From the IMG/VR virus record IMGVR_UViG_2617270973_000001: a stretch of 12,431 nucleotides of DNA; one strand, 5' to 3'. The notes under the pieces were generated by a model that did no database searches, had not been told where the DNA came from, and saw only the letters and a program-made list of their open reading frames with translations. Source of the stretch: a virus (Duplodnaviria; Heunggongvirae; Uroviricota; Caudoviricetes). The position numbers were made by a program, and so were the translations under genes. Below are positions 3,149 through 11,273 of the stretch, one piece after another. How positions within the stretch are numbered: the stretch's first letter is position 1; every line of letters starts with the position of its first letter.

Positions 3149-3762
3149 TGAACCAACAATTATTTCAAAAGGCGGCTGGTATTAGCGCCGGGCTGGCTGC
3201 GCGCTGGTTTCCGCACATTGATGCGGCGATGAAGGAATTCGGCATTACAGCACCAGCGGATCAGGCAATGTTTATCGCTCAGGTAGGCCATGAGTCGATG
3301 GGGTTTAGCGCCGTAGTTGAAAATTTTAACTACACACCATCTGCGCTGGTGGCGACGTTCGGAAAGAGGATCACACAGCAGCAGGCTGATGCCCTTGGCA
3401 GAACATCCGGACATGCAGCTCGTCAGGATGCTATTGCCAATCTGGTGTATAGCAACCGACTGGGTAACAAAGCACCCGGTGATGGCTGGAAATATCGCGG
3501 TAGAGGATTAATTCAAATCACTGGCCTCCATAATTATCGCATCTGTGGCGCGGCGCTGAAGTTAGATCTGGTGACCTCACCTGAACAACTGGAGCAGGAG
3601 CTACAGGCCGCGCGCTCAGCTGCATGGTTCTACACATCTAAAGGCTGCATGGTCTACGGTGCCGATATTAATCGTGTTACGCGCATCATTAACGGCGGTC
3701 TGAACGGTATTGAGGATCGTAAGATTCGATACAACAAGGCGCGGGCGGCGCTGCTGGTATGA
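3148..3762 (+). CDS. Endolysin, glycoside hydrolase family 19 (chitinase-like) type
   Basis: 204 aa. Contains YRGRGLIQITGLHNY and AAWFY, which resemble the class I chitinase / GH19 signatures. Sits between the holin-like genes and Rz. Confidence 0.85.
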   Translation: MNQQLFQKAAGISAGLAARWFPHIDAAMKEFGITAPADQAMFIAQVGHESMGFSAVVENFNYTPSALVATFGKRITQQQADALGRTSGHAARQDAIANLVYSNRLGNKAPGDGWKYRGRGLIQITGLHNYRICGAALKLDLVTSPEQLEQELQAARSAAWFYTSKGCMVYGADINRVTRIINGGLNGIEDRKIRYNKARAALLV

Positions 3763-4220
3763 AGATGAGTTATTGGGCGCTCATTTTAACGTTTATTGCT
3801 TGTATTGCTGGTGGTCTTGTCTGGTCAGCTAATCATTACCACAATAAAGCCATTGAATACAAAAAACAGCGCGACGAAAACGCTATGGCATTAGATTCGG
3901 CTATGGCGACGATCTCTGATATGCAGAAGCGTCAACGTGACGTAGCAGAACTCGATGCCAGATATACAAAGGAGCTTGCTGATGCTAACGCGACTATCGA
4001 AAGTCTCCGTGCTGATGTTTCTGCTGGTCGTAAGCGCCTGCAAGTCGCAGCCACCTGTGCAAAGTCAACGACCGGAGCCAGCGGCATGGGCGATGGAGAA
4101 AGCCCAGGACTTACAGCAGATGCTGAACTCAATTATTACCGTCTCCGAAGTGGAATCGACAGGATAACCGCGCAGGTTAACTACCTGCAGGAGTACATCA
4201 GGACTCAGTGCTTAAAATAA
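3759..4220 (+). CDS. Rz: Rz-like i-spanin (inner-membrane spanin subunit)
   Basis: 153 aa. N-terminal transmembrane helix (YWALILTFIACIAGGLVW) followed by a charged coiled-coil-like periplasmic region. ATG overlaps the endolysin stop (ATGA). A lipoprotein ORF is embedded in its +1 frame. Confidence 0.8.
   Translation: MKMSYWALILTFIACIAGGLVWSANHYHNKAIEYKKQRDENAMALDSAMATISDMQKRQRDVAELDARYTKELADANATIESLRADVSAGRKRLQVAATCAKSTTGASGMGDGESPGLTADAELNYYRLRSGIDRITAQVNYLQEYIRTQCLK
3982..4167 (+). CDS. Rz1: Rz1-like o-spanin (outer-membrane lipoprotein) embedded in the +1 frame of Rz
   Basis: ATG 3982 preceded by AAAGGAG at 3968-3974. Signal peptide with lipobox (MLTRLSKVSVLMFLLVVSAC), then a Pro-rich mature region (KSQPPVQSQRPEP…). 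Lies entirely inside Rz. The track's 3955 start is an in-frame alternative without an RBS. Confidence 0.75.
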   Translation: MLTRLSKVSVLMFLLVVSACKSQPPVQSQRPEPAAWAMEKAQDLQQMLNSIITVSEVESTG

Positions 4221-4262
4221 TTTTAACTTCACTGAAATTTAACAAGTGACTTTCAGGAAAAT

Positions 4263-4286
4263 GCCTCGCAGAAGCGGGGCTTTTTT
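4263..4286 (+). terminator. Intrinsic terminator downstream of the lysis cassette
   Basis: GCCTCGC-AGAA-GCGGGGC stem-loop (7 bp, one G-U pair) followed by TTTTTT at 4281-4286, about 40 nt after the Rz stop. Confidence 0.65.
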
Positions 4287-4433
4287 ATGTCCTCAGTAAA
4301 TGCGCTTCACACGCGCGACTTATGAACACAGAGCCTTTCAGGATGACCCTTGAGGATGCCGGTTTGGTTATCGGTGCCTTTCTGTGGGCCGGAATCCTGT
4401 GTGACAAGGTTCATCACTAAAAGGTAATTACCG

Positions 4434-4976
4434 ATGAATTATCCAACTATCGTTGACGGCATTGATTTCAAAGAACTGGTTTTTATTACCAACAATGACC
4501 CTGTCACCGATTCATTTATGGTGGCGAAAGCATTTCGTAAGCGACATGACAACGTTGTGCGTGATGTAGAAAGAACTATCGCTGCTTGTCCTGAAGAGTT
4601 TGATACAAAACTCAATTTTGAGGTTTGCTATAAAAACAATGAGTTACAGAATGGTAAGCCACAAAAATTCTATCGGCTACGTAAGGATGGGTTGATGCTT
4701 TTGGTTATGTCCTACACCAAAAAAGAAGCAATGCGTATCAAAATTGCTTACATCAACGCATTCAACTGGATGTACGCCATGCTTCAGGTTGGTAATCGTC
4801 AATTTGAAGAAGAGCGAAATGCCGTAATGCTGGAGTACATGAAAGAGAAGGATGTTGCCAGCATGTCAGGTCGCCTGCTAAATCGCTGGGGAAAAATTAA
4901 GAAGCCACAGCTGCTGGCTAGAATTGAACGCCTTGAACAGCACGGGCAAACCGTAATTCCCGGACTCACCAATTAA
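4434..4976 (+). CDS. Phage regulatory protein, Rha family
   Basis: 180 aa. The N-terminal region (ELVFITNNDPVTDSFMVAKAFRKRHDNVVRDVERTI) matches the conserved Rha-domain motif (…GKRHDNVLRDI…). Visibly more A/T-rich than its neighbours and bracketed by a terminator upstream and a 285-bp non-coding stretch downstream. Confidence 0.8.
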   Translation: MNYPTIVDGIDFKELVFITNNDPVTDSFMVAKAFRKRHDNVVRDVERTIAACPEEFDTKLNFEVCYKNNELQNGKPQKFYRLRKDGLMLLVMSYTKKEAMRIKIAYINAFNWMYAMLQVGNRQFEEERNAVMLEYMKEKDVASMSGRLLNRWGKIKKPQLLARIERLEQHGQTVIPGLTN

Positions 4977-5262
4977 CGGCAGCACCGCGAAACAACCCAA
5001 GCCAGTAAGTGGGGAAATAACACTGGCAGCCACTGAAAGATGAACCTCCAGCCTTATGGCAAAAAAGATTCTTTGTGGTGGCGGACTGATGGAAAGACAT
5101 CGGTTATTGCAGAGGCCATTCAATGAGTGGTCTCGACAATGGCTTATACCCTGCATGGGATAACTTAACTGATATCCCTTTTAACGGATAAACGGAGCCA
5201 ATAATGGCAGAGAATGTCGGCATTATGGCAGTGAAATTTGGATAAATCGGAGATTAGTACAT

Positions 5263-5613
5263 ATGCCGCCACGAATCCCAAAAGCCTGCCGTGTTCGCGG
5301 TTGCCGCCATACCACCACAGATCCGTCAGGATATTGTGAAAGCCACAAAAGCGAAGGCTGGACGCAATATAAGCCAGGTCAGTCCCGTCACCAGCGCGGT
5401 TATGGTTCGAAGTGGGACGTTATCCGCGCGCGTGTGCTGAAGCGTGACAAAGGCCTGTGCCAGTTGTGCCTGCGTGCCGGTGTGGTTCGTGAGGCGAAAA
5501 CCGTTGACCACATCATCCCTAAAGCGCATGGCGGCACAGATGCCGACAGCAATCTGCAGAGTTTGTGCTGGCCGTGCCATAAGGCGAAGACGGCCCGTGA
5601 ACGGCTAAAGTGA
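5263..5613 (+). CDS. HNH endonuclease (terminase-associated type)
   Basis: 116 aa. N-terminal Cys cluster (CRVRGCRH…C) and a classic HNH core (DHIIPKAHGG…NLQSLCWPCHKAKT). GGAG at 5249-5252. Directly upstream of the terminase small subunit, as in HK97-like phages. Confidence 0.85.
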   Translation: MPPRIPKACRVRGCRHTTTDPSGYCESHKSEGWTQYKPGQSRHQRGYGSKWDVIRARVLKRDKGLCQLCLRAGVVREAKTVDHIIPKAHGGTDADSNLQSLCWPCHKAKTARERLK

Positions 5614-5639
5614 TAATAATTCTCAACTGTCTGAGGGGA

Positions 5640-5699
5640 GGGGCGGGTCAAATCCCTGTGACCTGACGTCTTCCGGACTGCCCGCCCCATCGTTTTTTT
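5640..5699. other. G/C-rich inverted repeat plus T-tract between HNH and terS: candidate cos/packaging site or terminator
   Basis: GGGGCGGG (5640-5647) and CCCGCCCC (5681-5688) form a perfect 8-bp inverted repeat about 33 bp apart, followed by TTTTTTT (5693-5699). HK97-type phages place cos between the HNH gene and terS. Confidence 0.4.
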
Positions 5700-5738
5700 A
5701 TACCCGCGAAAAATGAAATTTAACCAGGAGTGCCGCAT

Positions 5739-6233
5739 ATGGCTGGAACGGCGGGGCGTTCCGGGCGTCGCCCCAAGCCAACGGCGCGCAAGGCGCTGGC
5801 CGGAAACCCCGGCAAGCGAGCCCTGAATAAAGATGAACCTGTTTTTACGCCCATCAAAGGTGTTGAGCCACCGGAGTGGTTCGCTGAAGAAGATCTCCCT
5901 CTCGCTACGATCATGTGGCAACTGACAACTAAAGAACTCTGCGGTCAGGGTCTGCTGTGCGTGACTGACCTCGCGGTGCTTGAGCGGTGGTGCGTGGCCT
6001 ACGAGTTCTGGCGACGTGCCGTGAAAAATATTGCCAGACAGGGCAACACCATCACCGGTGCAATGGGCGGTATGGTCAAAAATCCGGAGCTGACCGCCAA
6101 AAAAGAACAGGAGTCCGAGATGAGCAGTACGGGGGCAATGCTCGGACTCGACCCCAGCAGCCGCCAGCGTCTGATTGGCCTGGCGGGGCAGAAGAAAGCC
6201 ACTAACCCGTTTCTGAAAATCATCGAATCATGA
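5739..6233 (+). CDS. terS: Terminase small subunit, P27 family
   Basis: ATG 5739 with AGGAG at 5726-5730; the track's GTG 5730 start overlaps the RBS. N-terminal [29 protein letters not shown] and C-terminal [11 protein letters not shown] fit the P27-type small terminase pattern. Its stop overlaps the terL start (ATGA). Confidence 0.85.
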
Positions 6234-7963
6234 GCCGGAAATCTTACCCCAACGTAAATGCTGCCAATCAGTATGCCCGTGATGTCGTGCGCGGAAAGAT
6301 TGTGGCCTGCCAGTTTGTGATTCAGGCCTGCCAGCGCCATCTTGATGACCTGATGGAGGAAAAAAGTAAGTCGTTTCGTTACCGCTTCGACAAGGACCTG
6401 GCTGAACGGGCCGCGAAATTTATTCAGCTGTTGCCGCACACCAAGGGTGAGTGGGCATTTAAACGGATGCCCATCACGCTGGAGCCGTGGCAGCTATTTG
6501 TGATCTGCTGTGCGTTTGGCTGGGTCAATAAAGGCACCCGGTTGCGCCGCTTCCGGGAGGTGTATACCGAAATTCCCCGTAAGAACGGCAAATCGGCAAT
6601 CTCTGCCGGTGTTGCCCTGTATTGTTTTGCCTGTGATAACGAGTTCGGCGCGGAAGTGTATTCCGGTGCCACGACGGAGAAACAGGCATGGGAAGTCTTT
6701 CGTCCGGCACGACTGATGTGTAAACGCACACCCATGCTGACGGAAGCGTTCGGGATTGAGGTTAACGCCTCAAACATGAACCGTCCGGAGGATGGTGCGC
6801 GGTTTGAACCGCTGATCGGTAACCCCGGTGATGGTTCATCACCCCACTGTGCCGTGGTGGATGAATATCACGAGCACGCCACAGATGCGCTTTACACCAC
6901 GATGCTTACCGGGATGGGGGCGCGACGCCAGCCACTGATGTGGGCCATTACCACCGCCGGGTACAACATTGAGGGGCCGTGCTACGACAAACGGCGGGAA
7001 GTCATCGAGATGCTCAACGGCTCGGTGCCCAACGATGAACTGTTCGGGATCATCTATACCGTTGACGAAGGCGACGACTGGACCGACCCGCAGGTACTTG
7101 AAAAAGCTAACCCGAATATCGGTGTGTCGGTTTATCGCGAGTTTTTGTTAAGCCAGCAGCAACGTGCGAAAAATAACGCCCGTCTGGCAAACGTCTTTAA
7201 AACAAAACACCTCAATATCTGGGTGTCGGCGCGTTCGGCGTATTTCAACCTGGTGAGCTGGCAGAGCTGCGAGAATAAATCACTGACCCTTGAGCAGTTT
7301 GAGGGGCAGCCGTGCATTCTGGCCTTTGACCTGGCGCGTAAGCTGGATATGAACAGTATGGCGCGACTTTATACCCGCGAGATTGACGGTAAAACGCATT
7401 ACTACAGTGTGGCTCCGCGCTTCTGGGTACCGTATGACACGGTGTACAGCGTCGAGAAAAATGAAGATCGCCGGACAGCCGAGCGCTTTCAGAAATGGGT
7501 GGAAATGGGCGTTCTGACCGTTACCGATGGTGCGGAGGTGGATTATCGCTACATCCTCGAGGAGGCCAAAGCGGCGAACAAAATCAGCCCGGTCAGTGAG
7601 TCACCCATCGACCCCTTCGGGGCGACCGGGCTGTCGCATGACCTTGCGGATGAAGACCTGAACCCCATCACCATCATTCAGAACTACACCAACATGTCCG
7701 ACCCGATGAAAGAGCTGGAAGCGGCAATTGAATCGGGGCGTTTTCATCATGACGGCAATCCCATCATGACCTGGTGTATCGGCAACGTGGTCGGCAAAAC
7801 CATTCCGGGTAACGATGATGTGGTGAAGCCCGTCAAGGAGCAGGCGGAAAACAAAATTGATGGTGCAGTTGCGCTGATTATGGCGGTTGGCAGAGCCATG
7901 CTGTACGAGAAAGAAGACACGCTGTCTGATCACATTGAGTCCTACGGGATCCGCTCGCTTTAA
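6230..7963 (+). CDS. terL: Terminase large subunit (HK97 gp2-like / Terminase_1 family)
   Basis: 577 aa. Walker A-like motif in [18 protein letters not shown]. Size and position immediately after terS and upstream of the portal are as expected. Confidence 0.9.
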
Positions 7964-11253: not shown

Positions 11254-11273
11254 GGGGCGCGGAACCGCGCCCC
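11254..11273 (+). terminator. G/C-rich hairpin after the capsid gene; possible weak terminator, attenuator or mRNA stability element
   Basis: GGGGCGCGG-aa-CCGCGCCCC perfect inverted repeat 8 nt after the capsid stop. The downstream sequence (TGTTCTGAC) is only weakly U-rich, so efficient termination is doubtful. Confidence 0.35.

Follow-up and report, generated by a model that had tools for sequence, protein, structure and literature searches.

The question raised by this locus is what an 8-bp inverted repeat made only of G and C, followed closely by a run of T residues, is doing between an HNH endonuclease gene and the terminase genes of a tailed phage. The locus lies in a 12,431-nucleotide stretch of viral DNA (IMG/VR record IMGVR_UViG_2617270973_000001, Caudoviricetes), which we refer to as the window. 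An earlier note on this DNA had read the repeat either as a candidate cos site or as a terminator. The repeat itself is present as that note described it: the left arm, GGGGCGGG, occupies positions 5640-5647 and the right arm, CCCGCCCC, positions 5681-5688, leaving 33 nt in between; TTTTTTT, at 5693-5699, starts 4 nt past the right arm. A repeat search of the window returned the arm pair as 8 nt with 100% complementarity, and each of the two 8-mers occurs only once in the window.

The placement of the repeat between the HNH gene and terS was likewise confirmed. The gap is 125 nt long, and both flanking genes were identified by Pfam. On its left is the gene for the HNH endonuclease, a packaging accessory nuclease (5263-5613, plus strand; PF01844, E = 2.3e-16). 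On its right is the gene for a small terminase of the P27/Terminase_4 family (terS, 5739-6233, plus strand; PF05119, E = 2.4e-21), followed by the gene for a large terminase of the HK97/phiE125 type (terL, 6230-7963, plus strand), which combines an ATPase with an RNase H-like nuclease (TerL_ATPase, PF03354, and TerL_nuclease, PF20441). As in SfV orf1, we place the start of terS at the ATG at 5739 and not at the GTG at 5730. Genes for a portal, a prohead protease, and a major capsid protein (all by Pfam) lie 3' of terL, and those for a Q antiterminator (1146-1940), two holins, an endolysin, Rz (3759-4220), and rha (4434-4976) lie 5' of the HNH gene. The cos region discussed below is located inside a Q-antiterminated lambdoid late operon. 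Two minor features of its upstream part are that the Q-family antiterminator has a match to a DnaJ-type zinc finger and that a gene for a DUF968/HNHc_6 protein (179-1174) is directly upstream of the antiterminator gene and overlaps it.

Relationship to the published cos site of SfV/SfI-type phages

Megablast of positions 5200-6300 against phage genomes showed 99.5% identity to SfV, 98.1% to SfIV, and 97.7% to both SfI and SfII, with further matches to several E. coli and Salmonella phages. The window TerS is 99 to 100% identical to the TerS proteins of SfIV and vB_EcoM-689R6. The linear records of the four Sf phages start at different points, equivalent to window positions 5672 (SfV and SfIV), 5689 (SfI), and 5614 (SfII). 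For SfI, run-off sequencing of both termini of virion DNA found 10 nt to be absent relative to the prophage, 5'-TGCCCGCCCC-3', and the authors then linearised the SfI record to end with the cos site (PMC3636060). The record accordingly ends in ...TTCCGGACTGCCCGCCCC and starts with GTCGTTTTTTTATACCCGCG, at the base equivalent to 5689. The cos site is stated to be common to SfI, SfII, SfIV, and SfV (PMC3851460). A point against this placement of the end is that the SfV record is linearised 7 nt further left, at window 5671|5672.

The 10 nt mapped in SfI are identical to window positions 5679-5688, which hold the 8 nt of the right arm preceded by TG. The cos core of the window differs from that of SfI at only two positions, 5655 (C for T) and 5689 (A for G), neither of which is in the cohesive end. 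All four Sf phages share with the window the order HNH-cos-terS-terL as well as the identical 10-nt cohesive end. They are not fully collinear with it, in that rha stands between the lysis genes and the HNH gene in the window while in SfV the Rz/Rz1 genes run straight into orf53 (HNH).

We conclude that positions 5635-5723 very probably constitute the cos region of a prophage, a temperate phage of the SfV/SfI type and of HK97 style. The cos hypothesis of the earlier note was thus correct in substance, given the identity of 5679-5688 with the cohesive end mapped in SfI, and the gene order, with HNH at the right end of the genome and terS at the left, agrees with the HK97-type placement of cos that it had invoked. 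It had, however, picked the wrong arm: it likened the left arm, GGGGCGGGTC, to a cohesive end, whereas the SfI end contains the right arm. The left arm looked like a cohesive end because the predicted bottom-strand 3' overhang of the left genome end reads GGGGCGGGCA.

The site is not a new one. It has already been published in the SfV/SfI literature, and it is ordinary for what is a very common prophage module. The HNH-cos-terS module (5263-6233) has a match of any extent in 1196 of 5426 complete E. coli genomes (~22%) and a match at ≥80% coverage in 1109 of the 5426; up to four copies occur per genome, and 15 places are on plasmids. (A cos/terS region 99% identical to that of the window also occurs on a 5.6-kb contig, JAEWTL010000102.1, labelled "MAG: Bacillota bacterium," which is probably a mis-binned or contaminant contig.)

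The same prevalence raises the alternative that the prophage is defective and that cos is a relic, present but no longer used. Many prophages of this kind are cryptic, and nothing in the window proves inducibility. Against this, the packaging and head open reading frames in the window are all intact and match their Pfam families over the full length, and the cos core is separated from that of SfI, a viable phage, by just the two substitutions noted above. We therefore regard the relic reading as unlikely.

If the locus is taken as the cos region of an SfV/SfI-type phage, then cos, both genome ends, and the mode of packaging are settled for the annotation of this E. coli prophage module. There are also consequences for gene transfer. 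Because packaging would be of the cos type rather than headful, generalized transduction should be limited, and satellites carrying cos could be mobilised.

Polarity of the cohesive ends

In run-off sequencing, synthesis proceeds up to the 5' end of each template strand, so that 5' overhangs give overlapping reads and 3' overhangs give a gap. The SfI reads leave a gap and do not overlap, from which we infer 10-nt 3' overhangs; the report of these reads itself gives no polarity (PMC3636060). In the window, the corresponding 10-nt 3' overhang, the equivalent of cosN, would comprise 5679-5688, produced by nicks in the bottom strand at 5678|5679 and in the top strand at 5688|5689. The position of this cohesive end is supported by the run-off gap and the record terminus of SfI and by the aligned columns of phage phiE125, as follows.

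Phages phiE125 and phi644-2 have 10-base 3' extensions, CGCCCGCTTC (PMC2920897). The phiE125 record ends in ...GGGACCGCCCGCTTC and starts with GTCGAATTTTCACGCCCGCGAAATT, and these termini fall in the same alignment columns as the cohesive end of the window. The cos regions of phiE125, phi644-2, and phi1026b align with the window without gaps, and the proteins that would act on them are homologous: identity between phiE125 and the window is 68% over 317 amino acids for TerL (gp2), 51% for TerS (gp1), and 52% for the HNH protein (gp70). Both types have the GGAC| junction, a GCCCGC overhang core, and an CCCGCGAAA block at the same distance. They differ at 4 of the 10 overhang positions and in what follows the G-rich box (AAAAAG in the phiE125 type, TCAAATC in the window), and the phiE125 type has no 8-bp inverted repeat, with only 3 of the 8 pairs.

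HK97 also has 10-nt 3' overhangs, and cleavage of its cos site is stimulated by the HNH protein gp74 (PMC9410871, PMC11331095). The 3' overhangs of phiE125 and HK97 provide independent support for 3' polarity in the SfI type. We note that PMC9410871 is internally inconsistent on the overhang length, its Discussion giving "lambda 10-nt 5', HK97 12-nt 3'" and the legend of its Figure 1 giving 10-nt 3' ends for HK97.

Conservation of the cos region and fate of the inverted repeat

We aligned the regions upstream of terS from species-representative bacterial genomes, covering TerS identities from 99% to about 50%, and added phages vB_E174 (phiE125-like), VW-6S, and HK97, giving 39 distinct sequences (38 relatives plus the window). 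These sequences align essentially gap-free, and their conservation profile resolves into five segments, A to E. Segment A (5635-5657) consists of a G-rich box plus TCAAATCYCT and is conserved, with high information content. Segment B (5658-5674) is a variable spacer of fixed length (~17 nt), with low information content and no indels in the 38 relatives. Segment C is GGAC|YGCC, in which the A, the C, and the GCC are invariant; variation affects the overhang in its 3' half and the position of the top-strand cut. Segment D is about 4 to 6 variable nt, and segment E, TTTTTATACCCGCGAAAAATGAAATTTAA at 5695-5723, is the most conserved block of the intergenic region, being near-invariant down to relatives with TerS ~75% identical. 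The left arm of the repeat lies inside segment A, the right arm lies in the cohesive end in segment C, and the T7 run forms the left edge of segment E. No extra copies of the three cos elements (compare the R sites of lambda) were found; each is single-copy in the window.

What these segments do not preserve is the pairing between the arms. Stem complementarity falls to 2 to 7 of 8 pairs in the 38 relatives, and mean complementarity is 4.76/8 within a sequence versus 4.93/8 between sequences. In a 13-sequence alignment, 77.9% of cells pair versus 78.3% in shuffles, and the stem covariation score was reached by 479 of 500 shuffles, with slid registers about as good. RNAalifold (-7.8 kcal/mol, covariation term +0.18) gave no covariation support for the stem. 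Perfect 8-bp inverted repeats with loops of 3 to 50 nt are not rare in such sequence (15 seeds in the window versus 9.6 ± 4.1 in dinucleotide shuffles), while G/C-only ones are, at 0.085 per dinucleotide shuffle. The inverted repeat is therefore not a conserved unit and not a functional hairpin: the boxes are kept and the complementarity is lost. Its G/C richness is genuine but reflects two separately conserved G/C-rich elements, not hairpin selection, and the perfect 8-bp repeat is a by-product of the G-rich upstream box meeting the C-rich cohesive end.

These results bear on two further readings of the locus, of which the first is that the repeat functions as DNA, either by forming a cruciform or by providing two inverted half-sites (GGGGCGGG) that position a nuclease on both sides. 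The perfect complementarity in the SfV/E. coli clade and the rarity by chance of all-G/C 8-bp repeats are in its favor, as is a 7-bp version (GGGGCGG / CCGCCCC) that Bacillus phage Gamma, a distant phage, carries and that likewise stops at the right-hand limit of the cohesive end. Yet intermediates of the same architecture (phiE125, HK97, Xenorhabdus, Morganella, and Gilliamella types) have only 2 to 5 of the 8 pairs, complementarity within a sequence is no higher than between sequences, and the shuffle and slide controls show no excess. In Gram-positive relatives, moreover, the upstream box is C-rich, which destroys complementarity with the C-rich ends. A DNA-level role of the repeat is accordingly very improbable.

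The second reading, which the earlier note had offered as its alternative, is a Rho-independent (intrinsic) terminator of unusually large loop separating the rha/HNH unit from the terminase genes. It can be dismissed as extremely improbable. An 8-bp all-G/C stem with a nearby T7 is suggestive, and the stem is included in the minimum free energy fold of 5614-5738. However, the loop is 33 nt long, the T-run does not follow the stem immediately, and the fold is unremarkable in energy (z = -0.64, with 50 of 200 shuffles equalling or bettering it). Relatives neither keep the stem nor compensate for changes in it. Most of them read AATTTTT or TATTTTT at the T-run, so that only T5 is conserved, and this run is embedded in an invariant 29-nt block extending well past any terminator tail. 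A promoter/terminator scan of 4200-6400 gave four terminator-like sites, none of them here, and the late operon downstream of Q must be transcribed across cos if the terminase and head proteins are to be made. The T7 run is part of the probable terminase-site block considered below, not a terminator tail. Annotators should be cautious not to label the G/C inverted repeat a terminator.

By way of contrast, a canonical intrinsic terminator, GCCTCGCAGAAGCGGGGC followed by TTTTTT, is found at 4263-4286, just after Rz and before rha. Another perfect 8-bp G/C hairpin, GGGGCGCG-GAAC-CGCGCCCC, is located at 11254-11273, directly after the major capsid stop codon (11246), and no T-tract follows it. An Rfam search with E values up to 10 returned only two chance-level matches (E = 6 to 9), both inside terS.

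Elements flanking the cohesive end

Positions 5693-5723 (TTTTTTTATACCCGCGAAAAATGAAATTTAA) consist of an A/T tract, CCCGCG, and a second A/T tract, and both their conservation and the analogy with HK97 point to a candidate TerS site, the equivalent of cosB. HK97 TerS recognizes 15 bp at +15 to +29, CTAACCCGATTTTTT. Recognition depends on a particular C:G pair within CCCG and on the A-tract beside it; the orientation of the A:T pairs is immaterial, and G:C insertions abolish binding (PMC11331095). In the window, CCCG is at +15 to +18, between one A/T tract at +5 to +14 and another at +21 to +35. By this analogy, block E (5693-5723) is probably the binding site of the small terminase.

The comparison with HK97 has a further aspect. 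HK97 resembles the window in the placement of HNH and terS (right and left genome ends, respectively), in a C-rich 10-nt cohesive end, in a G-run plus TCAAATC at the identical distance from GAC|, and in a CCCG plus A-tract element downstream. The left half of the HK97 site (G-box, TCAAATC, spacer, and GAC|) aligns gaplessly to the window, while the right half is shifted by 4 bp, the CCCG/A-tract site of HK97 being that much further from the cut. This difference fits a left half read by the shared TerL and HNH proteins and a right half read by a divergent TerS, and so favors block E as the TerS site. The window TerL is recognizably related to HK97 gp2 (26% identity, E = 2e-11). No sequence similarity was detected between the window TerS and HK97 gp1 by BLASTP, Pfam, or PDB sequence search, and HK97 TerS is not in PF05119; together with the 4-bp offset of the CCCG, this counts against the TerS-site assignment.

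Two other readings of sequences at this locus were tried and rejected. The idea of a tRNA or T-arm for GGGTCAAATCCC was dropped after ARAGORN found no tRNA. A T5...A5 inverted repeat around ATACCCGCG in block E shows two apparent compensatory changes in phiE125, but, judged by reading the alignment, it is broken in most enterobacterial relatives (AATTTTT...AAAAA).

On the other side of the cut, the upstream cos element at 5635-5657 (plus strand), conserved in the 38-sequence alignment, is made up of the G-rich box plus TCAAATCCCT (GGGGAGGGGCGGGTCAAATCCCT) and contains the left arm. Its distance from the AC|YG junction is fixed. In the window, phage Gamma, Moraxella Mcat31, and Klebsiella Kp4884-3, the start of GGGGCGGGT precedes the junction by exactly 39 nt; the distance from the G-box to the junction is 38 nt in the D3-like Pseudomonas phage PMG1, and by gapless alignment the spacing in HK97 is the same as in the window. 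In Gram-positive HNH-associated cos phages, the G-rich box is replaced by C-rich boxes (CCCCCCACCC, CCCCCCCACCC, CCCCCCTGCCC, and CCCCGCCCCC). Those of phi105, BN12, and phiSLT (CCCCCCACCC-like) start 40 to 41 nt before an AC|CG, and that of S. thermophilus phage P7574 is near the end of the record. In Che8, a C8G7 run is found nearer the end, and the last 10 nt of the record are preceded by CC, not AC.

We found no description of the G-box element in the HK97 packaging literature examined. By position it resembles lambda cosQ, and we propose that it may be a cosQ-like signal or a docking signal for TerL or HNH. A reading of TCAAATCYCTG as a site for integration host factor (IHF) was also considered and rejected; the IHF consensus is WATCAANNNNTTR, and by eye the sequence matches only part of it.

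The resemblance to lambda is one of layout. The lambda cos site, like that of the window, is tripartite, with an upstream element, a nicking site, and, adjoining the terminase genes, a downstream site for the small terminase; its cohesive end is likewise G/C-rich. However, lambda has 12-nt 5' overhangs (PMC12315714), its terminase families are other than the TerL_ATPase/TerL_nuclease and Terminase_4 of the window, and it has no HNH partner and is helped by IHF. No lambda-family terminases were found in the window, where only PF05119 (TerS) and PF03354 plus PF20441 (TerL) matched. The window cos is not of the lambda (cosQ-cosN-cosB) type.

The HNH protein and the cut junction

The window HNH protein (116 amino acids) has an N-terminal zinc ribbon of the CxxxxC...CxxH type. 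Its identity is 52% to phiE125 gp70, 41% to the HNH nickase of phage Gamma (a full-length homologue), and 38% to HK97 gp74, which is without the N-terminal zinc ribbon. Among PDB entries, the best match to the window protein was the HNH nickase of GVE2 (5h0m, E = 1.3e-11, full length). N.phiGamma, N.phiE2 of GVE2, and N.phi105 are terminase-associated HNH nicking endonucleases, and the window protein is homologous to the Gamma and GVE2 enzymes. Previous work by Xu and Gupta showed that HNH proteins of the N.phiGamma and GVE2 type are strand-specific nickases that cut CG^GT, opposite AC^CG, and mapped this nicking specificity without connecting it to cos (PMC3592412).

The connection suggests itself when the junctions are compared. 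GGAC (5675-5678) is immediately to the left of the proposed bottom-strand nick in the window, and its A and C are invariant in the conservation profile. The junction reads GGAC|TG in the window, TGAC|CG in HK97, GGAC|CG in phiE125, and GTAC|CG in Gamma. In phiE125, HK97, and Gamma, the presumed bottom-strand cos nick falls exactly in the nickase motif. The AC|TG of the window gives CA^GT on the bottom strand, which is listed only as a star site (PMC3592412). AC|YG is the only strongly conserved part of the cut region in the conservation profile. From the coincidence of the junction with the nickase motif, together with this conservation, the sequence-specific nick in the bottom strand would be assigned to HNH and the one in the top strand, 9 to 10 nt away, to TerL. 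How HNH and TerL divide the work in HK97-type packaging, where cos needs TerS gp1, TerL gp2, and HNH gp74, was left open by recent structural work, and the division suggested here is one of the two options that it allowed (PMC11331095).

It is possible, if on balance improbable, that these features amount to a common grammar of HNH-dependent cos sites. In such a grammar, AC|YG(CC) would be nicked on the bottom strand by HNH, TerL would cut a poorly conserved top-strand position 9 to 10 nt downstream by measuring distance, and a G-rich box (C-rich in Gram-positive phages) ~39 bp upstream would signal arrest or docking to the incoming motor, much like cosQ. To our knowledge, no such grammar has previously been spelled out.

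Several observations count against the assignment of the bottom-strand nick to HNH. The junction of Gamma reads GTAC|CGCCGCCCC, and the 9-mer CGCCGCCCC is repeated at both ends of the record (NC_007458), but the Wbeta/Gamma ends (CGCCGCCCC) have been called 5' overhangs from PhageTerm analysis (PMC8878798), whereas the strand nicked by the Gamma HNH protein and the relatives HK97 and phiE125 would predict 3' overhangs. The AC|CG rule is also not exact everywhere: the annotated cos sites of phi105 and phiSLT are 1 nt to either side of the junction, and Che8 has CC in place of AC. HK97 gp74 has been described as non-specific and merely stimulatory. The phasing of the G-box, the AC|YG junction, and the CCCGCG/A-tract block supply cheap, testable hypotheses about the division of work between HNH and TerL.

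Proposed packaging mechanism

In the SfV/SfI-type phage represented by the window, packaging may proceed as follows. The P27-family small terminase would bind the A-tract/CCCGCG/A-tract block at 5693-5723 on concatemeric DNA, just to the right of the cut. TerL and the adjacent HNH protein would then make two staggered nicks, in the bottom strand at GGAC|TG (5678|5679) and in the top strand after CCCC (5688|5689). The products would be 10-nt 3' cohesive ends, with TGCCCGCCCC on the right genome end. Packaging would proceed rightwards from terS and halt at the next cos, where the motor would first meet the G-box/TCAAATC element (5635-5657), ~39 bp before the cut.

Variation in other relatives

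The arrangement of the terminase end of the genome varies in some relatives. Vibrio phage H2 (KY658673.3) has an HNH homologue, annotated as "holin," that stops 6 nt short of terS. Since its HNH-terS boundary offers no intergenic region resembling cos, cos in this phage must be elsewhere or within coding sequence. Relatives in Photorhabdus, Xenorhabdus, and Morganella have ~50 to 75 extra nt between the CCCGCGAAAAATGAAATTTAA block and the terS start codon, and in Xenorhabdus this insert has a conserved TTTCACTGTTTTTGAGCACGGGAGGTGCTG motif. The cohesive-end region of the same three groups is HK97-like, reading GGAC|CGCCGCCT.
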